Counted from the stretch's first letter, positions 10,141 to 44,585 are shown. The stretch is DNA of 64,000 nt from an uncultured Planctomycetia bacterium (GCA_964483625.1 CAZABB010000006.1:2129-66128), one strand, 5' to 3'. Numbers and translations: made by a program. The notes: generated by a model from the letters alone, not told the origin.

Positions 10141-10629
10141 TCACACCCACAGATTCTTATCCAGAGAACGGTACTGCACCGCCTCAGCCACATGGGCCGG
10201 GAGGATATCTTTACTTTGAGCCAGATCGGCAATGGTGCGGGAAATTTTGAGGATCTTATCGTAGGCCCGGGCGCTGAATCCGAATTCCCGCGCGGCAGCT
10301 TCAATCAATGTTTTTGCCTGAGAACTCAGGACGCAGTACTTCCTGATCTGCTTATGGTTCATCCGGGCGTTAAAGAACGTGCCGCCGTTATAAGACGCAA
10401 ACCTCTCCCGCTGGATCTTCCGGGCAGCTTCAACTCGTTTTTTTATTCGATAAGAGTTTTCACTCACCACTCCGTCAGCCATAACCGCACTCATCTTAAT
10501 ACTCTGCAGTTCGATGTGAATATCGATCCGGTCCAGGAGCGGACCGGATATTTTATTGCGATACCGCTGGATCTGAGAACCGGAACAGTGGCAGGGTTTG
10601 TGGTGGGAGTTGAAATACCCGCAGGGGCA
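10141..10629 (-). pseudogene. comM: comM/yifB Mg-chelatase-family ATPase, C-terminal fragment (island-interrupted)
   Basis: Minus-strand translation ..GCPCGYFNSHHKPCHCSGSQIQRYRNKISGPLLDRIDIHIEL...FSARAYDKILKISRTIADLAQSKDILPAHVAEAVQYR is the ComM C-terminal third. It lacks an N-terminus and is contiguous in sequence logic with the fragment at 44,566-45,624. Confidence 0.8.
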
Positions 10630-12253
10630 TCCCTTCAGCACACTTCGCAAACTCTTCGGGACTGTCAACGTAGATTGTCATGTCCATCTTGAGCTTCCTC
10701 CTGACTTTCTTGGCGAGGACTTCCTTTACGATTACGGCGAGCCTTGACTTCCTTGCTTCTTCTGAAAGGACTGGCCAGGTCTTTGCGAGGTTCTCAAGCT
10801 CTTCAAACGAGGCTTCGAGGGCGAGTATCCTGTTCTGCGATTCTTCTTTGACGGTCTTTACCTTTAGGAGGCTGTTCCTTACTTCTTCAAGCTGTCTGTT
10901 CACCTTTTCAAATCTCGGGGTGAATGTCTCGTCGTCTATTATCCTGCGTTCGAGCTTGCCGAGGAGTGTTTCTCTTATTTCATCAAGTTCCTTCTCATGC
11001 GCCTCGAGCTGGGCTTTTTCCTGTTTTTTGTTCTTGGTGTCGGGCTTTACCGCTTTCTTGAGTTCATTGATGAGCTTTGCCTTCTCTTTCAGGAATTGCT
11101 TGTTTTCTGAGAGCGCAAGGAGTGTCCCGATGACTATCTCTTCGAGTGGCTCTCCGTCTATGGTCTGTCCTTTGCAGGCTGAGGTTCCTTTCCTGCTTGT
11201 GGTGGCGCACCTGTAATACAGGTATTCCTTCTCCGTCCCGTCTGCATAGGTCTTTGTGTGGGTATAGCCGTACATCTTTCCCCCGCAGTGCCAGCATTTC
11301 AGTATTCCCGACAGGAGATAGGTCTTGTCCGATTTGGTGGGCTTTGATGTCTTCTGCATCAGCAGGTCCTGGACTTCATCGAATTTCTTTTTCGCCACTA
11401 TCGGCTTGTGGTCGCCTTTGACTATCTTCCATTTCTCCCTGTCCACGTGCCTGAGCTTTCCAGAGGAGATGTCAGTCTTTCTTTTGCCGTAGGTTATGTA
11501 TCCGAGATAGAAGGGGTTTGTCAGCATCCGTCTTACTGTCGTTGTTGTCCAGTCGCCCTTCCTTGTCTTGAGTCCCCGGAGATTGAAGCCGTTGACCACT
11601 TTGCGGAGGCTTTTCTCTTTGAGGTAGGAGTCATACATCTGCCTGATTATCTGCGCTTCCTCTTCAAGCAGGTAGAGCTTCTTGTTCTCGGGGGTTTCCC
11701 TGTCCGCTTTGTTCAGGGCTTTTGCTTCGCTTGCTCCTTTTGCCCTGAGGCTTTCGATGAGCTTTTCCCTTGTTATGTATCCAAAGGGGATTATCCCTCC
11801 GTTCCATTTGCCTTTTTCCGCCCTGTAGTGCATGTCAGTTGAGACTCTTTCGGAATCAATTTCTCTCTCAAGCTGTGCCAGTGCCCCGAGGAGGTTGAGC
11901 ATGAATCTTCCCATCGGGCCTTCGGTATTTATGTTTTCGTTGAGGGAGAGGAGCTTGATGTCGTGCTTCTCGAAGAACGATACAAGGAACAAAAGGTCTT
12001 GAAGCGACCTTGTGATCCTGTCAAGCCTTGTGAATACGACGATGTTGAACTTCTTGTCTTCTGCATCCTTCAGCAGAGCTTCCAAAGCCGGCCTGTTCTT
12101 GTCCTTTGCAGATATTCCCTCATCCCTGTAGAGCCTGAATACGGAGAATTCCCTTGCGTTACAGTATTGCTTGAGGCGTTCTTCCTGGGTCTTGAGGGAG
12201 TCACGGTCTATCTGCTGGGTGGTTGATACTCTTATGTAGAGTGCAGCTTTCAC
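10553..12253 (-). CDS. large serine recombinase
   Basis: N-terminal resolvase catalytic domain ALYIRVSTTQQ...S-nucleophile, a recombinase domain and a C-terminal zinc-ribbon/coiled-coil. GTG/ATG start at 12253. The 3' end reads across the attL junction into comM-derived DNA. Confidence 0.85.
   Translation of the reverse strand: MKAALYIRVSTTQQIDRDSLKTQEERLKQYCNAREFSVFRLYRDEGISAKDKNRPALEALLKDAEDKKFNIVVFTRLDRITRSLQDLLFLVSFFEKHDIKLLSLNENINTEGPMGRFMLNLLGALAQLEREIDSERVSTDMHYRAEKGKWNGGIIPFGYITREKLIESLRAKGASEAKALNKADRETPENKKLYLLEEEAQIIRQMYDSYLKEKSLRKVVNGFNLRGLKTRKGDWTTTTVRRMLTNPFYLGYITYGKRKTDISSGKLRHVDREKWKIVKGDHKPIVAKKKFDEVQDLLMQKTSKPTKSDKTYLLSGILKCWHCGGKMYGYTHTKTYADGTEKEYLYYRCATTSRKGTSACKGQTIDGEPLEEIVIGTLLALSENKQFLKEKAKLINELKKAVKPDTKNKKQEKAQLEAHEKELDEIRETLLGKLERRIIDDETFTPRFEKVNRQLEEVRNSLLKVKTVKEESQNRILALEASFEELENLAKTWPVLSEEARKSRLAVIVKEVLAKKVRRKLKMDMTIYVDSPEEFAKCAEGMPLRVFQLPPQTLPLFRFSDPAVSQ
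10609..10645. repeat. island left junction (attL-like): gaaataccc-GCAGGGGCA-tcccttcagc
   Basis: comM reading frame ends at the CPC codons. The plus-strand 9-mer GCAGGGGCA matches GCATGGACA at the right junction (GCAnGGnCA, 7/9). Confidence 0.5.
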
Positions 12254-12384
12254 TTATTGGTTTTCCTTTCTTCGAGGAGCTTTTGGAATACCTTGATATC
12301 GGCTTCAAGCAGGATTTCAAGAACTCTCTGAAGCCTGAACCGCTCCCCGCTACCTTCCTTTATTATCCTGCGTTTCTTCTTCAT
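12250..12384 (-). CDS. small basic protein (44 aa), possible recombination directionality factor
   Basis: MKKKRRIIKEGSGERFRLQRVLEILLEADIKVFQKLLEERKTNK. Its stop overlaps the recombinase start (GTGA). Absent from the ORF track (<60 aa). The RDF role is inference only. Confidence 0.25.
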   Translation of the reverse strand: MKKKRRIIKEGSGERFRLQRVLEILLEADIKVFQKLLEERKTNK

Positions 12385-12476
12385 GATTTGCTTTCCGTAA
12401 CATATTCTACTATGGAACACTATGAAGTCAAGAGGAATGTGCCTGCTGCTTATTTCAAAATTAAATGCAAAATCGG

Positions 12477-12505
12477 TTGCGTTACGGTTAGCGTTTGGAT
12501 ATAAT
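12477..12505 (+). promoter_or_regulatory. sigma70-like promoter (TTGCGT-17-TATAAT)
   Basis: -35 at 12477-12482, 17-nt spacer, -10 at 12500-12505, upstream of the RHH/methyltransferase operon. Confidence 0.4.
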
Positions 12506-12607
12506 AAAATCATATTTATACGATTAATATTATTCATATGATAAATAATATAAATAGGGCAAAAAACACAAAAAGTATAAATACCACTTTCTGCAGGAGT
12601 TAGATAA

Positions 12608-12766
12608 ATGCCAAAAAAAGGGAAATCAAAACAATCCATAGGGATAACTATAGATAAAGAAATCCTTAAGAAATTGGACAATTTCTGCAAGAAAAATTTT
12701 AATGCAAAACGGTCAGGCGTAATAGAGCAGGCCACAAAGAAATTCTTAGAGGAGAATTCAAAATGA
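12608..12766 (+). CDS. ribbon-helix-helix (CopG/Arc-like) DNA-binding protein
   Basis: 52 aa: MPKKGKSKQSIGITIDKEILKKLDNFCKKNFNAKRSGVIEQATKKFLEENSK, a beta-strand then two helices. GGAG RBS. Its stop overlaps the methyltransferase start (ATGA). Missing from the ORF track. Confidence 0.5.
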   Translation: MPKKGKSKQSIGITIDKEILKKLDNFCKKNFNAKRSGVIEQATKKFLEENSK

Positions 12767-14892
12767 GCAAATATGATTTTCTTGATGCACGCAAAGAACT
12801 CGAGCAGACGATAAGTGCTGATTTAAAACGGGCTCTTGAAAAGAGAGGGTTTAGCGTTAAACACAATGGCACTAAAGATTCCTCTGCACCGGGGAATAAA
12901 GCTGACATTGAGCTCTATAATTCGACTTACCATATCACTGTAGAGGTAACGAAGACAACAAAATCCAATGCAGACAGGGAATTTTTGGCAATAAAAGACC
13001 ACTTAGAGCAGATTAAAAATACATACACTTCAAAGAAATGTTTTACTATTTATGTATCTCCTGAGACACATTACCGCATGATGAATGCCATTCGAGATCA
13101 TGATATCTTAAATAGCAAGAAAAACGACCTTAAGATATTGCCTTTTTCTTTCGCTTCTTTTGAGCTCTTTATTACCAAGCTAATTCAATCTCACAAGGAA
13201 CAATACAATAAAACTCTGATTATAGGGTTATTTAATGAATATCTTAATTTTCTGGATGATGAGCGTGTCTTGAGGATATTATATGACAAACTATTTTCCG
13301 ACGACGAGCAACTCAAAAGAGAAATTCAAATTAAAGAGGAAAATAGGCATCAGCAGACCGTTGAGAATTTAGTAAAAGATTTACTCAATCTCGAAAATAA
13401 GTTGAGAGAAGAATTGGGAATTACCCATACTGATGCAATCAGAGATATTATATTTCTGGTCTTCATTAAACTTTATGAAGAAAAAAGAGAATTTGAAGGT
13501 AAAGAGAACAGATTTAAAAGGCACACCTTTCCTAAATTTCAAGAGTATATCAATGATGAGAAATTAGCAGGACATGAATTGTTTAAGTTGATAAAGGAAG
13601 ATAAAGAGCTTAAGTCTGCGAAGGTCTTTACTGATTCTGATTTTCTGTCCGATAAACTGGACGACAATTTCATCCTGAAATTCTATATTGAGCCGTTTGA
13701 GAAATATCACTTTTATACTACTAAAGTAGATGGCCTCGGCGCTGCATATGAGGTTTTGGGTATGCGGGCAGGTAAAGATGTTAAGGCAGGGCAGTTTTTT
13801 ACTCCTGAGAATGTCGTGAGATTTATGGTTCATATGGCAGAACTGGATTATGATGATGTAGTATTAGACCCCGCCTGCGGCACAGCAAGATTCCTTATAT
13901 ATTCTATGTATGACATGATTGAAAAAGTTCGAGGACGAAATCAGGATGATAAAGTCAAGAATATTAAGGTTAAACAATTGTATGGCTCAGATTATGACCC
14001 TAATGTGGCAAAGCTGGCAAAAATGAATATGTATATACACGGAGATGGGAAAACAAACATTATGGACCAAGACGGTCTTTTATTATTTCATTTTGATAAT
14101 CAAATTGATGCAATCCTTACAAATCCTCCTTTGGGTGACCAATCATATCAAAAGACAAGCTATGATGATATTTTTAAGAAGGAACGCATGGCTGTAATTC
14201 CAAAGAATAATGTATCCACAGATAATCTGAAGTCTTTGAGGGACAAGCTCAATGCCTTAAAAGAAAGTTTATTGAAGGCAAAAGAGACACAATCTCAGAA
14301 GAATGTCCAAAGGATAAGCAAGAACATTGAGGAATGTGAAAGGAAAATTGTTAATTTAGAAGAAGACATTGCCCGGGGGACTGTTGAACATAAGGTCTCT
14401 GGCACACAAATGAAAGGTGGCGCCTTATTCATAAACGCTGCGTATCATTATTTAAAGACTGTTAGAAATGAGGATGCTTTACCAGAGTGGCGTGGGGGGA
14501 AGCTGCTTCTTATTTTGGATGAGGGCATTTTGAATACAGAGGATTATTCTAATGTTAGAAATTTTGTAAAGGAGCATTTTTATATTAAGGCGGTGATTTC
14601 TCTTACGAGAGATACCTTCATCCCTATTTCTCATACAAGCACAAAGACCTCGATATTGTATTGTATAAAGAAAGAAGATTTAGATGCAGTCCAGCAAGAA
14701 CCTATCTTTTTTGCGCATGTGGATAAAGTCGGTTTGAATACAAAAGGCAAGGTGTGTGAGAATCATTTATTTAGTGGCAACAAGAAAAATATTCTGAAAA
14801 ATTATATGGAATTCAAGAAGAATGTGTTGGATTCATATGATGGTTTAGCCTTTAATAGAAAAAGATTTGTCGGGAAAAAGAAAAATGTTTGA
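12763..14892 (+). CDS. N6-adenine DNA methyltransferase with N-terminal nuclease-like domain (type IIB/BcgI-A-like or HsdM-like)
   Basis: Motif X/I QFFTPENVVRFMV...DPACGTARFL and motif IV NPPLG (gamma-class amino-MTase). The roughly 200-aa N-terminal domain has a D..E.TK arrangement (ADIELYNSTYHITVEVTK), possibly PD-(D/E)xK-like. Confidence 0.8.
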   Translation: MSKYDFLDARKELEQTISADLKRALEKRGFSVKHNGTKDSSAPGNKADIELYNSTYHITVEVTKTTKSNADREFLAIKDHLEQIKNTYTSKKCFTIYVSPETHYRMMNAIRDHDILNSKKNDLKILPFSFASFELFITKLIQSHKEQYNKTLIIGLFNEYLNFLDDERVLRILYDKLFSDDEQLKREIQIKEENRHQQTVENLVKDLLNLENKLREELGITHTDAIRDIIFLVFIKLYEEKREFEGKENRFKRHTFPKFQEYINDEKLAGHELFKLIKEDKELKSAKVFTDSDFLSDKLDDNFILKFYIEPFEKYHFYTTKVDGLGAAYEVLGMRAGKDVKAGQFFTPENVVRFMVHMAELDYDDVVLDPACGTARFLIYSMYDMIEKVRGRNQDDKVKNIKVKQLYGSDYDPNVAKLAKMNMYIHGDGKTNIMDQDGLLLFHFDNQIDAILTNPPLGDQSYQKTSYDDIFKKERMAVIPKNNVSTDNLKSLRDKLNALKESLLKAKETQSQKNVQRISKNIEECERKIVNLEEDIARGTVEHKVSGTQMKGGALFINAAYHYLKTVRNEDALPEWRGGKLLLILDEGILNTEDYSNVRNFVKEHFYIKAVISLTRDTFIPISHTSTKTSILYCIKKEDLDAVQQEPIFFAHVDKVGLNTKGKVCENHLFSGNKKNILKNYMEFKKNVLDSYDGLAFNRKRFVGKKKNV

Positions 14893-16321
14893 CACTTCTA
14901 TTTACTACAGATTTTCAGAAGAGATTGATGACAGGTTTGACGAAAATTATAATCATTTGCGTTATGATGAAATTAATCGGCTACTCAGTAAAAGCAGATT
15001 CGAGAATATCCTTCCTATAGGCGATAAGCAAGTTCTGAAGGAAATTACCAGTGGCAAAACGCCTCGAGGAATTAAGTATCAGGAAGAAGGAGTGCCATTT
15101 TTAGGAGCTTCAAATATCATCAACGGAGAGGTTGATATAGAAAGTTGCCCTAAGATTGAACAAGAAATGCATGAAGGAGTGCTTAAGTCTTCCAAGGTAA
15201 AAAAGGGAGATATTCTAATAACGATGGCGGGAACAATAGGTCGTTGTGCGATTTATTCTTATGAAGAAGAGGCAAATTGTAATCAAGCCGTAGCAATATT
15301 GCGATTGAATGAAGATATAGTAATCCCCCATTATGTCGTAGAATATCTTGATTCAGTTATTGGTGATCTGTTTTTTCAGAAATTCCAGCATATTTCGAGT
15401 CAGCCTAATATTAATCTTAATGAAATTAAAAGAATTAAGGTAATCCTTCCAGATAAGACGCAACAGAAGACCATACTGAATGAAATAAATAAAATTAGAG
15501 CAGAATTACATAATATAATAAAAATGCGTGAAGATAAGCTCATAGAGATTAAGGTTTCTATAATTGACGAGTTAGAATTTAAGTCTCAAATACCCAAAAC
15601 GTACTTTTTTCATAAAGGGAGAGAATCTACGAACTCCTGTTTTTCCTTTTTTGAAGATTTGGATAGGCTTCACTACTTGTTTAATCAACCCAAAGGTAAA
15701 TTATACGAAGAATTAATTAAAATATTTCATACTGTTGAACTTAATGATGCTTGCAGCGAACCCATTAAACGAGGAGAGCAGCCTGTATATATGGAAGAGG
15801 GGGAAGTGAAAGTCATAAAAACTATAGATTTAAAGAATTCTTATATAGATATGGATAATTGCTTAAGAGTATCACAGGAATTTTATGATGAGAAGGTTAC
15901 TGCTCAAATTTTTAAAAAAGATATTTTAATTGCTTCAACAGGCTATGGGTCTTTAGGCAAGGTAGATATATATGAGGATGATGAACCCGCTATGGTGGAT
16001 GGGCATATTTCTATTTTACGCCTTAACTCAGATTATGACCCCTATTTTATACTATACTTTCTTCGTTCTCCTTTGGGGCAGATACAGTTTGAAAAGTGGT
16101 TCTCTGGTTCTTCTGGGCAAATAGAAATTCAACCCGGAGACTTAGGCAAATTCTTGATTCCCTCTGCATCTGATAATGGAATTTCTTTTGTAAGGCAGTG
16201 CCAGATATCAAAGAAAATATCTGGTAAGTTAAAAGAAGCTAATTTGTTAAGAAGTAAAGCGGATTTAGTCAGAGATAAATTGTCTCAGAATTTTCAAGAA
16301 TTAATATTCCGGAACTTTTAA
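14867..16321 (+). CDS. hsdS: restriction-modification specificity subunit (HsdS-like, two TRDs)
   Basis: Two target-recognition domains separated by a conserved helical spacer (TQQKTILNEINKIRAELHNII), typical of HsdS. The likely start is ATG at 14885, overlapping the MTase stop. Confidence 0.8.
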   Translation: MSGKRKMFDTSIYYRFSEEIDDRFDENYNHLRYDEINRLLSKSRFENILPIGDKQVLKEITSGKTPRGIKYQEEGVPFLGASNIINGEVDIESCPKIEQEMHEGVLKSSKVKKGDILITMAGTIGRCAIYSYEEEANCNQAVAILRLNEDIVIPHYVVEYLDSVIGDLFFQKFQHISSQPNINLNEIKRIKVILPDKTQQKTILNEINKIRAELHNIIKMREDKLIEIKVSIIDELEFKSQIPKTYFFHKGRESTNSCFSFFEDLDRLHYLFNQPKGKLYEELIKIFHTVELNDACSEPIKRGEQPVYMEEGEVKVIKTIDLKNSYIDMDNCLRVSQEFYDEKVTAQIFKKDILIASTGYGSLGKVDIYEDDEPAMVDGHISILRLNSDYDPYFILYFLRSPLGQIQFEKWFSGSSGQIEIQPGDLGKFLIPSASDNGISFVRQCQISKKISGKLKEANLLRSKADLVRDKLSQNFQELIFRNF

Positions 16322-16348: not shown

Positions 16349-16831
16349 CTATTTCCCCATCAATTCCTCTCTAATCCTTTCCCCTTCCTCAGTCAGTACG
16401 TATAGCCTTCCGTTTTTCTGTTCGGGGTTGAGGCATTTGGCTATGCCTTTGTCTATGAATTCCCTGAGTGCGTCGCATATCCTTGCCACCTTTATGTCGT
16501 CGCTTTCCCCGTCCGGATTGATTTTCGAGAAGAGTTCTTTTTCCGTTATCGGGATGATGATGTGCCTGATTATCTCCTCTCGGAGCTTTTTGCCTTCGTC
16601 GGTCAGCTCATACAGTTTTCTTGCTGTCTTGCCTCCGTTTCTGCTTACCGCTATCCCTTTTTTCTCAAATGCCTTGAGCACGTCTGTCGTGTTGTTGCAG
16701 TTCGCCCTGTTGTAGTAGGGCTTGATTTTCTTCTGTATGAGGCTTGCTGTCATCGGGTAATCCATAGCTTTGATAATCGCTATCCTTCTTGGCCCTTTGA
16801 CAACCCATGCTAACAGCTCTATGCTCACCAT
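16349..16831 (-). CDS. tandem winged-helix DNA-binding protein
   Basis: Two wHTH-like repeats (..KGPRRIAIIKAM..GKTARKLYELTDEGKKL.. and ..ICDALREFIDKGIAKCL..GRLYVLTEEGERI..). Paralogous to ORF 22981..23232. Confidence 0.45.
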   Translation of the reverse strand: MVSIELLAWVVKGPRRIAIIKAMDYPMTASLIQKKIKPYYNRANCNNTTDVLKAFEKKGIAVSRNGGKTARKLYELTDEGKKLREEIIRHIIIPITEKELFSKINPDGESDDIKVARICDALREFIDKGIAKCLNPEQKNGRLYVLTEEGERIREELMGK

Positions 16832-18947: not shown

Positions 18948-19136
18948 ATGGTTAAAAGCAGGCTGATTAATGTGCGGTTGTCGGGGAGACAGTATGATCT
19001 CCTCATCAACCGTATGGAGTGCATGGGCTACCTTAACATGAGCCAGTTCATCAGGGATTGCGCTCTTCGGGATGACCTTGCCACCCTCAAGCTTCTGCGG
19101 GACATTCACGAGAGGGTGGTCGGCAGTGCCTCTTAA
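18948..19136 (+). CDS. MobC-like mobilisation (relaxosome accessory) protein
   Basis: VRLSGRQYDLLINRMECMGYLNMSQFIRDCAL matches the MobC family pattern (VRLTxxExxxLxxxAxxxGxSxSxYIRxxAL). Confidence 0.45.
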   Translation: MVKSRLINVRLSGRQYDLLINRMECMGYLNMSQFIRDCALRDDLATLKLLRDIHERVVGSAS

Positions 19137-20146
19137 CCCTTCATCAGTGCTTGTATCTCGGTTAATTCTTGTCTTTGCCTGCGGTATTCTTCTTCGGTTA
19201 TCCTGCCGTTACGGAATTCGTTGAATAGCTGGATGTATTGCCCTGCAAATATTCCGTTTGTGTCTGCTGGGTGCTGATTGGGTGGAGTCCGGGTGCATGG
19301 ATTATCCCCATTCTCTTGGTGCGTTGGCCGTGCCTCGGCGTATGGGTCTATGTGATCCATTGCCGAAGTCAGGTTCTTCTTGCCAAGCTGTGTATATGTC
19401 CTCGCCGTCAGCTCGACTTTCTCGTGCCTCATCAGCCTTCTTGCGGTCTCGAGATGTGTGCCCGAATTGATGAGCATTGAGCAGAAGAATTTTCTGAAGC
19501 TGTGGAAGCCGTATTTCTTTGCCTTGTAGCCGTTCTCTTTGATGTATAGGGTCTCAAGAAGTCCCGATTTTTGGGTGGCCTTCTCGAGCTCCTTTGACAG
19601 CGTGGTTACTGCTATCGGTTTCTCCGCCGTCTGGTGCGAGGGCAGGAGATACTTGCTGTCTCTCGTGTAGTGTGTCCATTTCTTCAGGAGCGGTATCAGG
19701 GACTTCGGGAAATACACGTCCTGGGGCACTCCTTTCTTCGTGACTATTAGCCTTATCCTGCATTCGTCGAAGTCTATGTTTTCTTTGAGGATTTCGCTTG
19801 TCTCTTCCCGACGGGTTCCCGTCACGCATGATACAAGGCTTGCCATCATGCAGTTGAGGTTATCCATGTGCCTGAACAGAGGGGGGAGGTCTTTTGGTCT
19901 GAACGGCTCCTTGCCTCTGTTCTTCTGAATCCATCTTTTGGGTCTCGGGTTGATTAGGCAGCCTTTTTCCCTGAATGCCCTAATCAGGAATTTCTTTTGA
20001 CGCTGCGTGATTCCTCCCGTCAGTATCTGCTCGTAAAGTTCCTCCGCTGTCAGATTGACCGTTTTCTGTATGTCCTTTTTCCCGTGTTGCTCGGGCTGTT
20101 TATTTGTTTGTTTATTTGGCTGTTTATCGGTTTGCATATTCGCCAC
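19133..20146 (-). CDS. tyrosine recombinase, catalytic-domain ORF (probably frameshifted gene)
   Basis: Catalytic residues in GTRREE...HSFRKFF...LMRHEKVELTARTYTQL (R..HxxR..Y). Low-complexity N-terminus KQPNKQTNKQPEQ encoded by a gtttgtttattt tandem repeat. Confidence 0.7.
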   Translation of the reverse strand: MANMQTDKQPNKQTNKQPEQHGKKDIQKTVNLTAEELYEQILTGGITQRQKKFLIRAFREKGCLINPRPKRWIQKNRGKEPFRPKDLPPLFRHMDNLNCMMASLVSCVTGTRREETSEILKENIDFDECRIRLIVTKKGVPQDVYFPKSLIPLLKKWTHYTRDSKYLLPSHQTAEKPIAVTTLSKELEKATQKSGLLETLYIKENGYKAKKYGFHSFRKFFCSMLINSGTHLETARRLMRHEKVELTARTYTQLGKKNLTSAMDHIDPYAEARPTHQENGDNPCTRTPPNQHPADTNGIFAGQYIQLFNEFRNGRITEEEYRRQRQELTEIQALMKG

Positions 20147-25038: not shown

Positions 25039-25392
25039 TCATGAAGCTTTGAAGTATATCGTCGGGCAGAGGTATTTTGTTCCTTGCTGGTTGTTTCTGT
25101 GATTGTATTTTTCTTTCCTGAGCAGGATTATGGGTGCTCGTATCAGAATTTGGGGTTTTCCGTCCTTGTCATCTTTTTCTGCTTTCTTCGCTCCCCATAG
25201 TCTTATCGCTGTGCTTGTTGTCGAAAGAGTGCTTTGCCTTATGTCTTTTGCGAGCCTGCTTATCGGTGTCCATTGGACATATTTCGGGAGTGCCTTGATT
25301 ATCTTTATCGCTCTTGCTTCCTCTGAGCGTTCAAGGTGGAAGAAGCTTTCTTCATTGTGGAAGCTTACGAGCCTCAGTTTTTCTCTTGCCAT
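25039..25392 (-). CDS. hypothetical protein
   Basis: 117-aa ORF abutting the ATPase gene. Confidence 0.35.
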   Translation of the reverse strand: MAREKLRLVSFHNEESFFHLERSEEARAIKIIKALPKYVQWTPISRLAKDIRQSTLSTTSTAIRLWGAKKAEKDDKDGKPQILIRAPIILLRKEKYNHRNNQQGTKYLCPTIYFKAS

Positions 25393-26774
25393 TTTCCTGC
25401 TATCTCTTTGAGTTCTTCATCGCTGACTTTTCTTATCGGGAGCGGTTGCGGTGTCCTTATTAGGCAGTTCTTGGCTCTGCCTTTCACTTTTGCAACTGCC
25501 TGGGCGACCCATATGTAGTCGAGGTATCTTGTCTCGTGGGGTTTGAGGAACAGGGCGTTTGATACTGTCGAGATGTCCTTGTAGGTGTTGTTTGTGAAAT
25601 GGATTTGGGTCTTGCACTGGTAAGCGTAATTGGGAACAGAGCTTGGCTCCTGCAAAATCGAGCATAGCCCGAGGCCCATCTTGCGTCCCTCACGGTAAAG
25701 ATTCTGAAGGATTTCCCCAGCTATCTGTTGTTCGTGCTGGCTTGAGGGGAAGAGGTGCTGGGCTTCCTCGCATATCAGGAAGAGCCGGAGCTTTTCGGAC
25801 TCTCCTCTGCTGAGCATTTCGAGAAGAATATGCAGGAACAAGGCTTCCTGGAAGAGTATCCTCAGGCTGTTGGGGAGTTCTATGTCCATTTCGAGAATGG
25901 TTATTCCCGGCCTTTTCAGCATTTCTGAGACGTCCATCGGGTTTCGTGAGCCGAACAGCTCTTTGGTATTTGAGCGGAGAAGGCTGTTAAGCACTCGAAG
26001 GGCCGAGTCCTTCCAGAGAGCAGACCTGCCCCGCAGGAATTGCCTGTCCACACGCTTCTTGATGTCCTCGATGTTCGGGAGCAGACGGAGCTTTCCCTCC
26101 TCGTAGCCGTCGAGAAGGTTTTCCGCCTCGTTCAGAATGAGGCTTCCTGATCCCTGGCCTGACAGTAGGGATTTGGCGAGAGGTTTTTCCGCTATTATCT
26201 CAATCCAGCTCCTTCTCGATATCCCTTTCGGGCCCGAGAAGAAAAGGTTGTATCTGAACGGAGAGATGTCCCTGCCGATAGTGAAGACCCGCACTTCAAA
26301 AGGATATTTCTCAGGTGGTAGCGAGAGCAATGATTTCCACTGGCGGTTCCAGTCCACAATCCAGACAGGAATGCCCTTCTTTGCCATCTGGACAGCGATA
26401 TTGAAAGAAAGAAGCGTTTTTCCTGTTCCTGTAAGCCCCGAAACCATGATGTGCTGCATGGCATCCTCAAGAGAAATCCGTAGCGGATAAAGCTCTCTGT
26501 CCGTTCCGTCGGAATTCTTCCCGTAACAGACCGTTCCGAGTGTTATATCTCCCTGTCCGCACTCCCGCTCTGTCGAAGGGGGGAGCATCACTTGGTCATT
26601 GAGTAGCCTGTCCTTGAGGAGCTTGTTTGCCGATAGCCTGAGAATCTTATCAAGCCTTTCTTTCCGCTCATCATCGCCTATTGCGTGTATCAGCTTCAGT
26701 TTTTCAGCTTTATCCGAGCCCCACTCAGTCTCGAGCTTCAGAATCAATTCATTTGTGCTTTCTGCTGTGTCCAT
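25374..26774 (-). CDS. FtsK/HerA/VirB4-superfamily P-loop ATPase (DUF87-like)
   Basis: Walker A SGLTGTGKT, Walker B-like LFLICEEAQHLF, length about 466 aa. The likely start is MDTAESTNE at 26774. Confidence 0.6.
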   Translation of the reverse strand: MDTAESTNELILKLETEWGSDKAEKLKLIHAIGDDERKERLDKILRLSANKLLKDRLLNDQVMLPPSTERECGQGDITLGTVCYGKNSDGTDRELYPLRISLEDAMQHIMVSGLTGTGKTLLSFNIAVQMAKKGIPVWIVDWNRQWKSLLSLPPEKYPFEVRVFTIGRDISPFRYNLFFSGPKGISRRSWIEIIAEKPLAKSLLSGQGSGSLILNEAENLLDGYEEGKLRLLPNIEDIKKRVDRQFLRGRSALWKDSALRVLNSLLRSNTKELFGSRNPMDVSEMLKRPGITILEMDIELPNSLRILFQEALFLHILLEMLSRGESEKLRLFLICEEAQHLFPSSQHEQQIAGEILQNLYREGRKMGLGLCSILQEPSSVPNYAYQCKTQIHFTNNTYKDISTVSNALFLKPHETRYLDYIWVAQAVAKVKGRAKNCLIRTPQPLPIRKVSDEELKEIAGKWQEKN

Positions 26775-26776
26775 TT

Positions 26777-27241
26777 TTAACCCAGAATCTTCCTGTCCTG
26801 TTTTAGTTCCTGTCTTTTGTGCCACTCGTTTATGAAGTAGGTGATGGGTTCGTTGAGGTCTTTCCATGTTTCATGCCTGTTTTCGAGCATCCGCATTTCC
26901 AGGCTGTTCTTTTCTTTTTCGAGCATGGATTTCCTTCTCTCGATGTTCATGTTGTAGCCTGTCCTGAAGCCTGAAAGCTCGCCGATCTGTCCAGATAGCT
27001 CGTTCCATTTTGATTCAAGAGCATAGGAAGAAGCCCGATAAAGTTTAAGCCTGTAAGCCACGGAAAGGGCGGTATTCACGACCTTATCGAGAAGCTTGCC
27101 GGAGTCCTGTTCAAGGATTTCCTCGATAGAAAAGCCTGAAGCAGGGCTTCTTTCGGGCTTGCAGGGCTTGCCAGATGAATAGAGATACTGCTGGAAGAAC
27201 GGCGTGTAATAAGCAACTGGTTTATAGTTATTGAAGTTCAT
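26777..27241 (-). CDS. hypothetical protein
   Basis: 154-aa ORF immediately upstream of the ATPase on the same strand. Confidence 0.4.
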   Translation of the reverse strand: MNFNNYKPVAYYTPFFQQYLYSSGKPCKPERSPASGFSIEEILEQDSGKLLDKVVNTALSVAYRLKLYRASSYALESKWNELSGQIGELSGFRTGYNMNIERRKSMLEKEKNSLEMRMLENRHETWKDLNEPITYFINEWHKRQELKQDRKILG

Positions 27242-30628: not shown

Positions 30629-31915
30629 ATGACCACACCTACTCATATCGCAGGAGCTACGGCAGGCATGCTTCTCATAGCAGTCGCCTTCAGGTGCCTG
30701 AACGTATCATGGGCGACAATTCTTTTCACGATGTTTGCGGGACTGCTTCCCGACATAGATAACGTTAAGTCTATAATCGGGTGGCTGTTTCACAGGCTTG
30801 TTTCCATTCTGTCTTTCGGCAAAGTGAATTTCTCGAAGCTTGTTCAGCACAGGGGATTCTTTCATTCACTGCCTTTTGTGGCCCTGCTCTCATTCATACT
30901 TTATTTCATAAGGGCTGATTTGATTCCTTATCTCCTGATTGGAATGCTCTCTCACATTGTCCTTGATTCATTCCAGAAGAGAGGTGTCAAGCTTCTGGGT
31001 TTTGGCAATGCCTGGGGAAGATTCTCCCTTAATTGGAACATGCTCTTGAGGTCTTCGGGAGAATATTCAGTCCTTGCTTCCTGCATCATGATTATTCTTG
31101 TTTCATCGGCGGTAATCTCGAAAGGCGGGACTAATCACATCATCAGGAAAGCGTTAGGCACGCTCAAGGCCACTGTTGAGGATATCAATGACCTGAAGAA
31201 TTATGAGTGCTTCCTTGTCGTGAATGATAGCGGTGTCCAGAGTGAGTATCTTATAATCGGCTCTTTTGGAAAGGATTCAGTCATTGTCCTTGACGGGAAT
31301 TCTCCTCTGTCATTCGGCTACCGCCATAACTGCCAACTGAAAGCGGATAACAAGTCTTACGTCAGGAAAGACAGGAAGATGAAGACTATCGAATACAAGT
31401 TTATCCTGAAGGATAAATCATTCAGGCATCTTTATAACAAGATTGACAGCTCGTATTTCTATTATTTTTCCGGCAGTGCTCTTCTCAAAGATTCAAAGGA
31501 AATCCCGTTTTTTTATAACAGGTATAACACTGTTTCTGCTTCCGGAAAGAGGCTGAATTTTGAATTTGCGAGGCTTGAGGATTTGAAGGTTTATGGGATT
31601 GAGGACTCTGAAATACTGCTCGGCGATTTTGTAATAACTTACAGAATCGCCGAAGGCCAGAATCCTCCTCCGCTTTCGGCAAAGATTACCGAAGCGGTTT
31701 CCGCCGATGTTGAAGCTGTCGAGAAAAGGATTTCGGAATTGAAAGGAATCATAAACAGTCCTGACCTGAAGCGGGAAGTCGAAAACATATTCAATGTCGA
31801 TTCAGAGGAAGCGGAAATCTACCTGCGGGTTTTCAGGAGAAAGGCTGAAAAGCTGTTAAAGGAAGAAGAAACCAACCTTCTGAGGATTCACTCGATAAAA
31901 AAGGATATGCCATGA
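30629..31915 (+). CDS. DUF457/YdjM-like membrane-bound metal-dependent hydrolase fused to a ~250-aa soluble domain
   Basis: About 4 TM helices with conserved HxxxD (HIVLDSF) in the N-terminal 170 aa. The C-terminal domain is unknown. Confidence 0.5.
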   Translation: MTTPTHIAGATAGMLLIAVAFRCLNVSWATILFTMFAGLLPDIDNVKSIIGWLFHRLVSILSFGKVNFSKLVQHRGFFHSLPFVALLSFILYFIRADLIPYLLIGMLSHIVLDSFQKRGVKLLGFGNAWGRFSLNWNMLLRSSGEYSVLASCIMIILVSSAVISKGGTNHIIRKALGTLKATVEDINDLKNYECFLVVNDSGVQSEYLIIGSFGKDSVIVLDGNSPLSFGYRHNCQLKADNKSYVRKDRKMKTIEYKFILKDKSFRHLYNKIDSSYFYYFSGSALLKDSKEIPFFYNRYNTVSASGKRLNFEFARLEDLKVYGIEDSEILLGDFVITYRIAEGQNPPPLSAKITEAVSADVEAVEKRISELKGIINSPDLKREVENIFNVDSEEAEIYLRVFRRKAEKLLKEEETNLLRIHSIKKDMP

Positions 31916-32769
31916 AAATTCTCAAAGAATACGAAAGGCACATGAAGATTTGCAGGAAAAGCCCTGCCACTATCCGGCAGTATGGTAATGACGTGAAGCT
32001 TTTCTGCAATGCTTTCGGTGCGGATATCTTCAAGAGTTCGGGCAAGGACGTTGATGGATTCATTGAGTGGCTCATTGACAGGAAGTGCCAGAACGTAACG
32101 ATTGCGAGAAAGATAGCATCGCTCAGAAGCTTTTACGTCTTTCTCACAGCGAAAGGCTTCGTGAAAAATAATCCATTCCTCAAAGCTCCAAAGCTGAGGA
32201 TCCCCCGGAAAGACCAGAGGGTTCTCACGGGAGAAGAAGTAAATCGGATATTTGAGACCCTGGGGGATTATCCTCCCACTCTTAAAGGCAGGGTGACTGA
32301 TTGCATCCTGCATATCATGTATTTTCTCGGCCTGCGGGTCTTTGAGGTTGCGAGCCTCGATGTCTCAAGCATCTCGGCTCCGCCTGAGAGTTATCTGAAC
32401 TTTATCGGGAAAGGCGGGAAACAAAGAAGCCTTCCGCTTGTCCATGATAAGCTTGTCTGCTCTCTTGATGAATGGATGGAATTTCGGAAAAAGTTTCCCG
32501 GAGTCGAGGCCCTTTTCATCAGCCGTAACCTCAGCAGGATTTCGGTAAGGACTATCCAGAGGTGGATAAAGTGTCTCGGAGTAAATTCCGGCTTGGGGGA
32601 TTGTTTGACGCCTCACGTTCTGAGAAGGACTTTCGCTACCCGGCTTCTTGAGCAGGGGGCTGACCTTTTCTCGGTTGCGGATTTGATGGGGCACGAGAGC
32701 CTCACTACGACAAGGAGGTATGCAGTGGTAACAGACAAAAAGCGGAAGGGCACGCTTCTCTTACTATGA
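31912..32769 (+). CDS. tyrosine recombinase (XerC/D-like)
   Basis: N-terminal SAM-like domain (TIRQYGNDVKLF...IASLRSFYVFL) and catalytic R...HVLRRTFATRLL...GHESLTTTRRY. Its start overlaps the upstream stop (ATGA). Confidence 0.8.
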   Translation: MKILKEYERHMKICRKSPATIRQYGNDVKLFCNAFGADIFKSSGKDVDGFIEWLIDRKCQNVTIARKIASLRSFYVFLTAKGFVKNNPFLKAPKLRIPRKDQRVLTGEEVNRIFETLGDYPPTLKGRVTDCILHIMYFLGLRVFEVASLDVSSISAPPESYLNFIGKGGKQRSLPLVHDKLVCSLDEWMEFRKKFPGVEALFISRNLSRISVRTIQRWIKCLGVNSGLGDCLTPHVLRRTFATRLLEQGADLFSVADLMGHESLTTTRRYAVVTDKKRKGTLLLL

Positions 32770-35751: not shown

Positions 35752-38091
35752 ATGGATAAAGCTGTTCTTGTATCAAAAATTAAGGAGTTGAGCAATCTTG
35801 CTAATAAGCTTCATGGCTTTGAAGATGATGAGGAAAGTTTCCTTGTTGCGATTAAGGGGCTTGACAGGAAGTATCTTGAGGGCGAGCTTGAGAAATTTCG
35901 TGAAGGAAGCATTAGCTGGAATGGCGTTTTGAAGCCTGTTAATTTCCTTAAATTCTTGGTAATAGATAAGGTTCTTGATGACAAGGATGTTTCTCTTGAG
36001 ATTATTGACGAGTTCAAGGATAGGATTCTTAAGCTGGATGTTGATTATTTCAAGGATTATCCTGATTTCAAGGAGGCAATGCTCAAGCTTGAGAAGGGTA
36101 AAAACTTTTTTTGGCAGTGGAACAATATTTTCAAGATTCTTTTTTATGTCTATTATGACCAGCATAAGGACAGCGTCAATTCTTCTCTGACCGAGATTGC
36201 TGACCATTTCAAGACTGTTTTGAATATGAAGGATTCCAAGACAACGATTAACGGGTTTGGGTGGAATAATAATTATGGCTCGAGCGATTGCTGGATTGCT
36301 CTTTATCCTCCTGATAGGGACAGCCATCAGAAGGCTTATCAAATCTTTTTGAGGGTGAATCCTGTAAACGAGCTTGTTTATGGAATGACTAACGGCGCAA
36401 AGATTGCGGAGAACAAGAAGCTTGAGAAGCAGGATGGTTCTAACGTTGATGTAGACAAGCTCGAGAAATTTCTCTTTGAGAAAGCTAAGCCTGAGTATGA
36501 AAAGCTTAACGCCTCTGTTAAACCTGAGCCTGACGAAGAAGAGGTTGACGAAGAATTAAGGGTTGTCGATGAGAAATGCCCCAAGAATGTCATTCTTTAC
36601 GGCCCTCCTGGGACTGGAAAGACTTATATGGCTTACGAGGAGGCTGTTCGCATTGTTGATCCTTCCTTTTCGTGGAAGGACAGGAAGGCTCTCGTTGCTA
36701 AATTTCGTGAGTTTCAGGATAGCGGTTATATCACTTTTGTTACTTTCCATCAGTCTTTCAGCTACGAGGAATTCATTGAGGGTTTCAGGTATGACAAGGA
36801 AGAAAAAATGCCTATGGTTGAGTCTGGCGTGTTCAAGACGCTTGTCGAGAGCGCAAGGTCTGACTATGTAAGTCCTAAGAAGAAGATTGATTTGAACCTT
36901 GCTAAGAGGAATGTATTCAAAATGTCGCTCGGCAACACTCTCAAGGAAGATGAGGATATTTATGATTTCTGTATGCAAGAAGACATCATAGCCATTGGTT
37001 GGGGGCAAGATGTTAACTATACGGGAGCCGATACTAAGGAAAAAGTCGCCAAGAAGTTCAAAGAGCATGAAGGAAGCGATAAAGATTCTGTCTTTAATGT
37101 AACAGCGATTCACTTCTTCAAGAATATCATGAAGAAAGATGACCTTGTATTTGTCTCTAAAGGAAACCGTTCCTTGCGTGCTATTGGTCGTGTTGTGGGG
37201 GAATATTATTATGATGAAAATGTACCTATAAATTATCGCCATTTCAGAAAGGTCGAGTGGCTTCTTACGGACAGCAATATTCCCGTAGAGAAAGTTATGA
37301 AGAAGAATTTCAGCCAGCAGACTATTTATGAGATAAGCAAGAGCTGGCTGCTTGAACAGAACCTTCAGGAGCTTCTTGCTAAACCAGCAGACAATAAGAA
37401 AGAGGTCAGGAATTATGTGCTGATTATCGACGAGATTAACAGGGGGAATATCTCTAAGATTTTCGGGGAGTTAATCACTCTTATTGAGGATGATAAAAGG
37501 CTTGGCATGGAGAACGAGATGGTCGTCAAGCTTCCATACAGCAAGGAGATCGATTTCGGGATTCCTCCCAATATCTATGTTATCGGCACTATGAATACTG
37601 CTGATAGGAGTATAGCTTTGATGGATGTCGCTCTTAGACGAAGGTTTAGTTTTAAGAGGATTGCTCCAGAATCCAAGATTATCTCTGACTTGTTGTCCGA
37701 GAAGGAGGTCGATGGGGATTTTATTGAGATTTTGCAGAAGTCCTTTATTGCCTTGAACAAAAGGATTAAGGTGTTGCTTGATGAAGACCATGTTATAGGG
37801 CATAGTTATTTTCTGAAGATTGGGCCTGAAGATTTCGAGTATGATCTTCATGCTGTCTGGTATGACAAGATTATTCCTCTGCTTCAGGAATATTTCTATA
37901 ATGATTGGGATAAGTTGAGGCTTGTTCTCGGCGAGCATAATTCTCAGAAACGTAGCGGTTTCATTAAGGTTTTAGAGGCTGAATACAAGGGCATTTTCGG
38001 CTCTGAGTTTGATGAGGAGTATCCTTGCGAAATTGTCCGCTATGAGCCTGATTTGTTCTCTCAGGTATTGAAGAACACATTTATCGGATAA
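35752..38091 (+). CDS. mcrB: McrB-family AAA+ GTPase with unknown N-terminal domain and internal PUA/EVE-like insertion
   Basis: Motifs GPPGTGKT, FHQSFSYEEFIEG, LIIDEINRGNISKIFGE, GTMNTADRSIALMDVALRRRF are near-identical to E. coli McrB motifs, but about 175 extra aa lie between FHQS.. and IIDEINR. GGGAGGGGG RBS. Confidence 0.8.
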   Translation: MDKAVLVSKIKELSNLANKLHGFEDDEESFLVAIKGLDRKYLEGELEKFREGSISWNGVLKPVNFLKFLVIDKVLDDKDVSLEIIDEFKDRILKLDVDYFKDYPDFKEAMLKLEKGKNFFWQWNNIFKILFYVYYDQHKDSVNSSLTEIADHFKTVLNMKDSKTTINGFGWNNNYGSSDCWIALYPPDRDSHQKAYQIFLRVNPVNELVYGMTNGAKIAENKKLEKQDGSNVDVDKLEKFLFEKAKPEYEKLNASVKPEPDEEEVDEELRVVDEKCPKNVILYGPPGTGKTYMAYEEAVRIVDPSFSWKDRKALVAKFREFQDSGYITFVTFHQSFSYEEFIEGFRYDKEEKMPMVESGVFKTLVESARSDYVSPKKKIDLNLAKRNVFKMSLGNTLKEDEDIYDFCMQEDIIAIGWGQDVNYTGADTKEKVAKKFKEHEGSDKDSVFNVTAIHFFKNIMKKDDLVFVSKGNRSLRAIGRVVGEYYYDENVPINYRHFRKVEWLLTDSNIPVEKVMKKNFSQQTIYEISKSWLLEQNLQELLAKPADNKKEVRNYVLIIDEINRGNISKIFGELITLIEDDKRLGMENEMVVKLPYSKEIDFGIPPNIYVIGTMNTADRSIALMDVALRRRFSFKRIAPESKIISDLLSEKEVDGDFIEILQKSFIALNKRIKVLLDEDHVIGHSYFLKIGPEDFEYDLHAVWYDKIIPLLQEYFYNDWDKLRLVLGEHNSQKRSGFIKVLEAEYKGIFGSEFDEEYPCEIVRYEPDLFSQVLKNTFIG

Positions 38092-38095
38092 GAAA

Positions 38096-39415
38096 ATGGT
38101 CTTAAAAAATAAAGTTATATCGCTTTCAGAATTTGAAGAAATTCCCCTCTCTGAGCTTGAGGTAAAGATTGGCAAACGAGGCATCAGGCTTTTGAAGAGG
38201 ATTAATTCCCGGAGCGGTTGCGAGATTTTTCGCCTCTTGCATGATAGGGTTAAGGCTTCTCATTATGTGGGTTTTGTCCGTGTTCTTGGTTACACGATTC
38301 AGGTCGTGCCTAAAGTTTTTGGGGAGGACAAGCCGGATAATCTCCATTTCCTTCTTTGCCTTTTGAGATATACAAGGAAGATTCAGGTCAAGGAGCACGA
38401 AATCGGTAATCTGGGGAAGGTCAAGGATGACTTTTTCGAGATATTGATTTTCTTGTTTGCTAAGGCTCTTCGGGAGCTTTTGCGGAGGGATTTTAAAAAG
38501 ACGTATGTTGTCCGTGAAGAAAATAGTCCGTTCTTGAAGGGAAAATTCTTAATCAGTGAGAATGTCAGGCGGAATATTTTTGATGATTCGAGGTATTGTT
38601 GCAGGTTTGATGAATTCACTGAGAATAATTTGATGAATCAGCTCTTTAAGTATGTTGTTTCGATGCTCATAAGGATATCGAGGTCTGTGTCCAATAAGAA
38701 GCTCCTTGAGGATATCCTCATATATTTATGTGATGTTGAATTGGTGAATATTACCTGTGCGGATATTGATAGGATTCACTTTACCCGTCTCAACAATTCA
38801 TATGAGCCGTTGGTAAACCTGTGCAGATTATTCCTTGAAAACATGAGCATCCGTTTCTCAGCTTCCAAGCTCGAGACTTTCGTGTTCATGTTTGACATGA
38901 ACAGGCTGTTTGAGGAATTTGTCTTTGAGTTCGTTAGAAGAAACAGGAGTAAATTGTTTATTGGCGGGGAAAACGAAGTTGTTTTTGTTAAAGACCAGAT
39001 TTATATTGGCAAGCTGTTCGACGAATTCAAGATGCGAGGGGATATTCTCATTAAGGACTCTTCAGGCAGACTTATTTTGTTGGATACGAAGTATAAAACT
39101 CTTGATTCATACGCCCTTCATGGGCGTTTGTCTCAAGCAGACTTTTATCAGATGTTTACTTATTCGACATCGCAAGAACAAAAGTATGAGGATGTAATCT
39201 TGTTGTATCCTTCCAATGAAGAGGTGGCCGAGCCTTTCACTGATAAAGAGCTTAGGCATGTTATAGCTGGAAAAGAGACTGTTAAGATTCATGTCAGAAC
39301 AATCAGTCTTACTAAAATATTCAATGCGGAAAAGAAGTCAATTAATGAGACGGCGATGATTGAAGAGTTAAATAAAGCATTTATGTTGCCTTCTGCTAAT
39401 TTGGTATTGAGGTGA
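38096..39415 (+). CDS. mcrC: McrC-like restriction endonuclease subunit
   Basis: Starts 5 nt after the mcrB-like stop. C-terminal PD-(D/E)xK core LILLDTKYK, McrC-like length. Confidence 0.75.
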   Translation: MVLKNKVISLSEFEEIPLSELEVKIGKRGIRLLKRINSRSGCEIFRLLHDRVKASHYVGFVRVLGYTIQVVPKVFGEDKPDNLHFLLCLLRYTRKIQVKEHEIGNLGKVKDDFFEILIFLFAKALRELLRRDFKKTYVVREENSPFLKGKFLISENVRRNIFDDSRYCCRFDEFTENNLMNQLFKYVVSMLIRISRSVSNKKLLEDILIYLCDVELVNITCADIDRIHFTRLNNSYEPLVNLCRLFLENMSIRFSASKLETFVFMFDMNRLFEEFVFEFVRRNRSKLFIGGENEVVFVKDQIYIGKLFDEFKMRGDILIKDSSGRLILLDTKYKTLDSYALHGRLSQADFYQMFTYSTSQEQKYEDVILLYPSNEEVAEPFTDKELRHVIAGKETVKIHVRTISLTKIFNAEKKSINETAMIEELNKAFMLPSANLVLR

Positions 39416-44569: not shown

Positions 44570-44585
44570 GGACAGGGGTTCATCG
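44553..44585. repeat. island right junction (attR-like): gtgttac-GCATGGACA-ggggttcat
   Basis: The comM N-fragment frame (AAMNPCPC) switches to island sequence after the CPC codons. Repeat partner of the 10,621-10,629 site. Confidence 0.5.

Follow-up and report, generated by a model that had tools for sequence, protein, structure and literature searches.

Type IIB restriction-modification (R-M) enzymes, of which only about 28 are known, serve as tools, for instance in 2b-RAD. Helix-turn-helix (HTH) controller proteins, or C proteins, belong typically to classical type II systems and not to type IIB. In the "RM + S" type IIB enzymes, BsaXI and BcgI included, a restriction-modification chain (RM) of R-H-M layout is paired with a specificity subunit (S) (PMC11997821). 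BcgI brings in additional protomers, and cutting takes more protein than binding does (PMC3592470). Among the AlwI-type enzymes, AlwI and MlyI dimerise on DNA and cut both strands, and BstNBI/BspD6I nicks without its small subunit (PMC3017599). A third group of interest here is that of ribbon-helix-helix (RHH) repressors such as Omega, which bind heptad arrays in their own promoters (PMC3874152). The present analysis deals with positions 12477-16321 of a 64,000-nucleotide stretch of DNA from an uncultured Planctomycetia bacterium (GCA_964483625.1 CAZABB010000006.1:2129-66128), the whole of which is called the window. The open reading frames (ORFs) of the window show three co-oriented, overlapping genes at these positions, encoding an RHH-like protein, an RM chain and an S subunit.

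The locus is probably a self-contained, ATP-independent, type IIB-like R-M cassette. The enzyme would belong to an undescribed lineage that works like type IIB; membership of the BcgI/BsaXI group is unsupported. The features of the locus, all on the plus strand, are given below with the evidence for each.

12477..12600, plus strand: promoter/operator region, with a candidate sigma-70 promoter, four heptamers and the Shine-Dalgarno sequence AGGAG at 12595-12599.
12608..12766, plus strand: RHH gene, 52 residues, putative controller/autorepressor (sub-threshold RHH matches, purifying-selection signature).
12763-14892, plus strand: RM gene, 709 residues (Pfam domains, more than 100 full-length homologues).
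12763..13197, plus strand: RM residues 1-145, PD-(D/E)xK nuclease domain of AlwI/BspD6I type (Pfam, PDB profile match, Foldseek).
13198..13707, plus strand: RM residues ~146-315, multi-helical connector (model helices 150-312, HsdM/BsaXI alignments).
13708..14892, plus strand: RM residues ~316-709, gamma-class N6-adenine methyltransferase (MTase) (N6_Mtase, PDB matches).
14885..16321, plus strand: S gene, HsdS-type, two target recognition domains (TRDs), 478 residues from the ATG at 14885 (Pfam Methylase_S, PADLOC).

The nuclease assignment concerns the N-terminal domain of RM (N-domain). Pfam places RM residues 18-133 on positions 318-438 of the 441 positions of RE_AlwI (PF09491), with 38.1 bits against a cut-off of 23.1. 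The N-terminal, FokI-like recognition part of PF09491 (positions 1-317) was unmatched, and the rest of RM is HsdM-like. A comparison with nuclease profiles, proposed in the preliminary description of this locus, yielded a PD-(D/E)xK nuclease: the N-domain profile (A2) matched residues 430-568 of N.BspD6I at E 3.7e-8 in a profile search against the PDB. In that alignment PD48IE is paired with PD456ME, VE61VT with GE469VT, E73 with E482 and H80 with H489. A model of the N-domain alone has a predicted local distance difference test score (pLDDT) of 93.8 and an alpha-beta-beta-beta-alpha-beta core. When this model was searched with Foldseek, the nine best PDB matches were all the Nt.BspD6I catalytic domain or the R.BspD6I small catalytic subunit, with template modelling (TM) scores of 0.63-0.73 and E values of 1e-8 to 4e-7. 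RecU, Hjc and other generic PD-(D/E)xK folds come next, four logs behind. A single-sequence search of the N-domain against the PDB gave no match, and BspD6I was reached only by profile and fold search.

The preliminary description had pointed to a D...E.TK arrangement, which was found as D48...E61-V-T63-K64. In 53 homologues the invariant residues are E14, Q15, K27, R28, H34, D48, E61, T63, K67, E73 and H80, and the acidic residues D48/E61/E73 are kept, with E14 and H80, down to ~30% identity. Since the residues that align with those of BspD6I are invariant in the homologues, D...E.TK is, by alignment, the signature of the AlwI-family active site. E14, D48, E61, K64/K67, E73 and H80 are taken as putative catalytic residues. 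The D456A and E418A variants of Nt.BspD6I are catalytically deficient (PMC6261011), and E14, which opens helix 1, could plausibly correspond to BspD6I E418. Judged by these alignments and by the model, the N-domain is very likely an active nuclease. The other candidate for residues 1-190, a standard HsdM N-terminal domain, had been raised in the preliminary description and was ruled out. The alignment with StySJI HsdM starts at RM residue 197, which corresponds to HsdM residue 6, and the nuclease domain occupies residues 1-145; residues 1-190 are therefore extra relative to HsdM.

Kinship with the nuclease domains of BcgI, BsaXI and type IIG enzymes was judged from the fold matches and the PADLOC models, a set without BcgI itself. 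In the Foldseek search of the PDB, neither BsaXI nor BpuSI nor FokI appeared in the first 50 hits of the N-domain. The PADLOC REase_MTase_IIG models match RM residues ~320-464 only, and the type IIG/IIB models align only to the MTase part. The BcgI-like type IIB assignment made in the preliminary description holds for the architecture, an RM fusion plus S without a translocase that also matches RM.BsaXI, and needs refinement for the nuclease, which is of AlwI/BspD6I type and not detectably that of BcgI, BsaXI or type IIG enzymes.

The remainder of RM follows the HsdM plan. An AlphaFold model of the whole chain, built from 53 homologues (pLDDT 87; predicted TM score 0.79), shows the nuclease domain at residues 1-145, a helical connector at ~150-312, the MTase fold and a hairpin at 484-538. 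By alignment and model, the connector is equivalent to the HsdM N-terminal helical domain and to the BsaXI "H" domain, and the chain as a whole has the R-H-M layout of RM.BsaXI (R 1-145, H ~150-312, M ~320-709). RM residues 209/241 align to residues 219/251 of RM.BsaXI; the residue numbers are nearly equal, and the region before the connector is therefore of the same length in both proteins. In the whole-chain fold search of the PDB the matches were HsdM proteins, with RM.BsaXI at rank 3 over ~750 columns, and the best PDB sequence matches of the MTase were StySJI and EcoKI HsdM. Pfam detected no helicase or ATPase domain in RM. A complete gamma-class MTase core had been claimed; the motif order and the N6_Mtase match (E 7e-31) agree with the class, and the word "complete" needs a caveat at motif IV. 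Motif I (DPACGTARF, residues 369-377, 13867-13893) precedes motif IV (NPPLG, residues 454-458, 14122-14136), as is the gamma-class order. The Leu of motif IV aligns to the Phe of NPPF in StySJI HsdM. NPPLG is invariant in 52/53 close homologues and in 29/29 genomic relatives, down to 30% identity. No description of an NPPL motif IV was found in the literature, which here and below means mainly open-access literature. In the model, the hairpin (residues 484-538, 14212-14376) consists of two antiparallel helices, is rich in K and E and is inserted just after motif IV. This hairpin is missing in one relative (P0065) and shortened in another (P0061).

The genes are translationally coupled. The ATG of the 52-residue ORF is preceded at 8 nucleotides by AGGAG, and its TGA stop overlaps the RM ATG by 4 nucleotides (ATGA at 12763-12766), so that the 52-residue RHH ORF coupled by ATGA that was previously proposed is present at 12608-12766. 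The RM ATG is likewise preceded by AGGAG-N8. The mechanical ORF of S runs from a TTG at 14867 (14867-16321), and from the ATG at 14885 the S start overlaps the RM stop by 8 nucleotides (ATGTTTGA). Because the overlap is the same, 8 nucleotides, in the homologous locus L001, the ATG at 14885 is the likelier start. Judged by the RM homologues and by the coding signature of the 52-residue ORF, neither the RHH gene nor the RM gene is a chance ORF. The cassette lies in a patch of low GC content (0.34-0.39, versus ~0.48 in the flanks). A 161-residue minus-strand ORF (12250-12735) is most likely spurious, since it lies across the conserved promoter and the greater part of the RHH gene.

The S subunit was also recovered as previously described, as an HsdS with two TRDs and an overlapping start. 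Pfam Methylase_S matches it in two stretches, corresponding to the two TRDs, with conserved helical regions, and PADLOC assigns it to Specificity_I at E 1e-40. No HsdR is present in the 64-kb window, in agreement with the earlier observation. The ORFs of at least 600 residues in the 64 kb are only RM, a McrB-like AAA protein, UvrD, EF-G and an MMPL transporter, and none is unassigned. No HsdR-like ORF was seen beside the RM relatives when their neighbouring ORFs were inspected. Beyond S, a minus-strand gene at 16349-16831, convergent with S and 28 nucleotides away, encodes a 160-residue protein with two PadR-like winged-helix repeats; it shares the low-GC patch and is not conserved beside the relatives.

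RM belongs to a sizeable family. More than 100 full-length homologues share 50-65% identity with it, and their annotations read no more than "N-6 DNA methylase" or "type I ... methylase subunit". The N-domain profile identified just 181 proteins at E <= 0.001 in a set of 1.84 billion cluster representatives. In the strong hits the domain is N-terminal in MTase fusions of 700-1010 residues. The weak hits are bona fide AlwI-family enzymes (~600 residues, domain C-terminal) and small catalytic subunits. Among species-representative genomes, full-length RM relatives were found across eight or more archaeal phyla as well as in bacteria, and the cultured carriers include Neobacillus sp. OS1-33, Sphingomonas mucosissima DSM 17494, Methylobacterium hispanicum DSM 16372 and Deinococcus radiomollis. 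Two groups of relatives can be described. In group 1 (about 20 loci, in genomes of eight or more archaeal and several bacterial phyla), an RM gene for ~700-790 residues is followed by an overlapping or abutting S gene, and the S proteins match the window S over one or both TRDs in a mosaic fashion, as expected from TRD shuffling. The more distant group 2 (30-36% identity) consists of single chains of ~970-1030 residues. In addition, some close relatives (P0082, P0085) are fused RM-S variants that carry one TRD on the RM chain, which recalls the single-chain type IIB enzymes. In one Dehalococcoidales metagenome-assembled genome (L037, 4001-5988) the RM homologue is split into two ORFs with S intact, which suggests from sequence a frameshifted, probably inactivated copy.

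The protein encoded upstream of RM was identified as RHH from several concordant hits, each of them sub-threshold. Pfam gave RHH_3 (E 0.004), RHH_1 and the RHH part of HicB-like antitoxins, and NCBIfam gave the aCcr1 RHH family (6e-5) and the NikR N-terminal RHH domain. The RHH profile (A4) matched 2kel in the PDB, the archaeal-virus RHH regulator SvtR, at E 3e-4, and also the RHH antitoxin Rv0298. The PHROGs matches were an Arc-like repressor and other transcriptional repressors. Taken together, these matches point to an RHH fold. Only two relatives were found in 5.8 billion proteins, with 83% and 77% identity, and the gene of each overlaps by 4 nucleotides a large MTase-fusion gene. Pairwise differences by codon position among the three RHH genes are 10/3/18, 12/5/22 and 10/6/29, with synonymous changes exceeding non-synonymous ones; by this signature, the RHH gene is under purifying selection. 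The two fusions behind these relatives share only the MTase core with the window RM, at 25-33% identity. One of them (L006) encodes 723 residues with a classical D...E-F-K N-domain and is followed by an S gene and a GmrSD gene, and the other (L008) is a type IIG-like enzyme. The window N-domain and the D..ExK N-domain of the L006 enzyme show no similarity (hhalign probability 0.4%).

The promoter is shared along with the RHH gene. The window and L006 are similar in DNA sequence from 12386 onwards, and this similarity breaks off exactly at the RHH stop codon; RHH thus appears to travel with the promoter ahead of whichever RM gene follows. The candidate promoter is TTGCGT-17 nt-TATAAT (12477-12505), with a counterpart TTGCAC-17-TATAAT at 173-201 of L006. 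It rests on this conservation and not on the generic sigma-70/terminator scan, which did not rise above shuffled expectation. ATAAATA/TATTTAT heptamers lie at 12513-12519 (minus strand), 12541-12547, 12550-12556 and 12577-12583, so that 4 of the 23 heptamers in the 64 kb fall within 71 bp. Heptamer arrays are also present in L006 and L008, the promoter geometry being kept in L006 and partly in L008. Inverted repeats were considered as promoter operators and set aside, as they form many overlapping AT-rich pairs of doubtful meaning and the heptamers are more reproducible. We infer that RHH binds the heptamer array. On this conservation, RHH and its promoter read as a portable cassette that precedes three different nuclease-MTase fusions.

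Small genes for other putative DNA-binding proteins often precede RM relatives, sometimes overlapping the RM start, and their folds are unrelated. AbrB/MazE-like genes are found in L003 (7807-7995), L013 (3842-4000), L017 (3465-3794) and L023 (3817-4008), zinc-ribbon genes in L020 (21-167) and L022 (3843-4004), an HTH-XRE gene in L025 (784-1023) and an Arc-like RHH gene in L029 (176-313). No homologue of the window RHH was found beside other members of the RM family, and no paper on an RHH controller of an R-M system was found. Of the proposal that an RHH controller stands in place of the HTH C protein, the RHH-like protein and the conserved regulatory cassette are borne out, and "in place of" is only an analogy.

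The R-M genes sit within a genomic island of ~34 kb that splits comM, a Mg-chelatase-like gene. The N-terminal part of comM lies at 44506-45624 (minus strand) and the C-terminal part at 10141-10668 (minus strand), and the junction between the two halves falls in the codons for ...NPCPCG.... At the island edge lies the gene for a large serine recombinase (10553-12253, minus strand), which overlaps the C-terminal comM fragment. A sigma-70-like promoter at 12431-12404 (minus strand; TTGACT-16-TAGAAT), conserved in L006, faces the recombinase, and the 12253-12607 spacer is therefore a divergent promoter region. The island also holds genes for a McrB-like protein (AAA_5), McrC, a HerA-like ATPase, two tyrosine integrases and a metallo-beta-lactamase-fold RNA/DNA hydrolase (35752-39415, plus; 25374-26867, minus; 19133-20146, minus; 31912-32769, plus; 40296-41561, plus), and it looks like a defence island. 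In the metagenome SRR7048225, L006 (1-7206) corresponds to window 12215-12766 and has the same recombinase 5' end (98% over 58 nucleotides). L006 carries the same divergent promoter block and RHH cassette with a different nuclease-MTase fusion and S gene, plus the GmrSD type IV enzyme. The cassette is the same and the cargo different, so the defence cargo behind a constant regulator appears to have been swapped. The best organism-named matches of the EF-G of the window (53773-55776, minus strand) were all Candidatus Omnitrophota, the top one at 82% identity. By these matches the host was judged to be an uncultured Omnitrophota bacterium; the closest named RM relatives are mostly archaeal, which points to horizontal transfer.

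Domain identities, conserved catalytic residues, gene coupling, HsdR absence and RHH-promoter conservation were observed; the stoichiometry, two-sided cleavage, methylation and RHH repression we infer by analogy. S would most likely bind two RM chains, as (RM)2S, and read a bipartite target with one RM per half-site. When host DNA is hemimethylated or unmethylated, the MTase domains would methylate one adenine in each half-site. When the DNA is foreign and unmethylated, the nuclease domains, swung out on the connector, would cut at fixed distances outside the site. Because there is one catalytic site per chain and AlwI-type domains need a partner for the second strand, double-strand breaks would probably need extra protomers brought in by nuclease-nuclease contacts, as in BcgI. 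Such recruitment would make cleavage steeply concentration-dependent. RHH would be translated first from the shared mRNA; it would most likely bind the ATAAATA array just downstream of the promoter, repress the operon and keep the enzyme at a safe level. Concentration-dependent cleavage would give reason for a repressor that sets dosage in a system whose R and M cannot be timed apart.

Several findings weigh against this account, and they bear on three other explanations. Homology to the known type IIB nuclease domains is unsupported, with BsaXI outside the top 50 fold matches of the N-domain. The canonical lysine of E-x-K is a Thr (E61-V-T63), as in BspD6I, and the catalytic lysine could be either K64 or K67, K64 being Q or T in a few homologues. 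With NPPL in place of NPP(F/Y/W) at motif IV, MTase competence is not guaranteed on sequence. The locus might be read as an orphan M + S methyltransferase, whose N-domain is a vestigial or non-catalytic fold for DNA binding or protein contacts and whose methylation serves epigenetic or anti-restriction ends. The missing HsdR in the window and the Thr for the E-x-K lysine fit such an orphan, as does the annotation of the homologues, in every source, as "N-6 DNA methylase" only. However, D48/E61/E73, E14 and H80 are invariant across the 53 homologues and kept to ~30% identity, the same E-V-T arrangement occurs in catalytically active BspD6I, toxic nuclease genes typically have a tight regulator upstream, and the L037 relative is frameshifted, as happens to costly restriction genes. 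An orphan is thus quite improbable. An enzyme that is active and yet makes no type IIB double cuts, nicking one strand or cutting one side for want of a dedicated AlwI-type partner, is unlikely. The closest structural relative, Nt.BspD6I, is a nickase when alone (PMC3017599), it is the best match in both structure and sequence and it needs a separate small subunit; no gene for a small AlwI-like subunit adjoins RM in the window. Against nicking, AlwI and MlyI of the same family homodimerise on DNA and cut both strands, and BcgI meets the problem of one site per chain by recruiting further protomers. The N-domain also fits the BspD6I small subunit nearly as well as the large one (TM 0.63), making self-pairing plausible.

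The role of RHH can be questioned in the same manner. Every RHH family hit is below its curated threshold, the heptamers sit in very AT-rich DNA, where such words are locally likelier, and the cassette adjoins a divergent recombinase promoter in 2/3 loci. Instead of controlling the R-M genes, RHH might regulate the divergent serine recombinase, and with it island excision or integration, or might inhibit RM by contact in the manner of an antitoxin. The RHH promoter is back-to-back with the conserved minus-strand promoter (12431-12404) and L006 carries the same recombinase 5' end, both of which fit a recombinase regulator; the weak matches to the RHH parts of HicB-like and Rv0298 antitoxins fit an antitoxin. 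These roles are nevertheless improbable. L008-L012 keep the 4-nucleotide overlap of RHH and MTase fusion when the recombinase-proximal DNA is not conserved, the similarity starting only at window 12530. The similarity between loci ends exactly at the RHH stop, and other family members have unrelated small DNA-binding genes at this position with no recombinase nearby.

For the type IIB-like reading, the wider family may be described, tentatively and with somewhat less than even confidence, as an uncharacterised, mostly archaeal, mobile and helicase-free lineage, in which an AlwI-type domain is grafted on a type I-like M2S core, Leu universally takes the place of the adenine-stacking aromatic of motif IV, and interchangeable non-HTH controllers (RHH, AbrB-like, Zn-ribbon) move between unrelated nuclease-MTase fusions. 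No description of AlwI-domain/MTase fusions was found in the literature. If the description is true, independent nuclease capture gave rise to type IIB-like enzymes on two or more occasions, and the folds of R-M controller proteins are far more varied than the HTH C-protein paradigm allows. A lineage apart, with its own kind of nuclease and hundreds of members, would add new specificities and possibly new cut geometries. It would also be a natural test of how an AlwI-type domain with one site per chain makes double-strand breaks on an M2S core. That NPPL is invariant calls into question the supposed requirement for an aromatic residue in motif IV. The shared RHH cassette and the other small genes suggest that non-HTH control of R-M systems is common and overlooked, especially in archaea. 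The annotation "N-6 DNA methylase" hides the nuclease, so censuses of defence systems miss the RM family.

Among known systems, the locus is closest in architecture to the type IIB RM + S enzymes, BcgI (A2B) and BsaXI ((RM)2S; PDB 8w0p/8w2p). They have the same single chain of nuclease, connector and gamma-class MTase, the same separate HsdS-like subunit with two TRDs encoded immediately downstream, and no ATPase or translocase. The domain boundaries of RM.BsaXI are almost identical to those of the window RM, and the identity, ~20%, is confined to the MTase and connector. The solvent-exposed hairpin of the window RM recalls the BsaXI "paddle" in shape; the paddle is at the C-terminal end, whereas the hairpin follows motif IV, and the BsaXI "knob" has no counterpart in the window RM. 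The window differs from these enzymes in its AlwI/BspD6I-family nuclease, its NPPL motif IV and its upstream RHH gene. The nuclease is shared instead with the AlwI/MlyI/PleI/N.BstNBI-BspD6I type IIS enzymes (PF09491; PDB 2ewf, 2p14), which have the same fold, the PD...E-V-T...E...H signature and aligned catalytic residues. These enzymes, like the window RM, have one active site per chain and need a partner domain for a double-strand break. However, their catalytic domain is C-terminal to FokI-like recognition domains and their MTases are separate proteins, whereas in the window RM the domain is N-terminal to the MTase and recognition is delegated to the HsdS subunit.

Type I R-M systems (HsdR2M2S) share the HsdM-like MTase and a typical HsdS, with TRD shuffling among the relatives. 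They differ in that the window has no HsdR, and so no superfamily 2 (SF2) motor or ATP dependence, and its nuclease is fused to M. Membership of the MADS systems was considered and rejected, since MAD2 scored 138 bits against a cut-off of 720 and MAD5 93 against 400, with no other mad genes nearby. In its regulation, the locus resembles the C-protein systems (C.PvuII, C.AhdI, C.Esp1396I), which likewise have a small co-transcribed regulator gene upstream of the nuclease gene, repeated operator-like sequences in the regulator's own promoter and a regulator-promoter module common to unrelated enzymes. Unlike these, the window regulator has a predicted RHH fold and not an XRE-type HTH fold, and its candidate operators are ATAAATA heptamers and not C-boxes. 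With R and M in one polypeptide, such control cannot serve to delay R relative to M, and dosage control is likelier. The nearest RHH analogue of the window regulator is the heptad-binding Omega repressor of the epsilon-zeta toxin-antitoxin system (PMC3874152).

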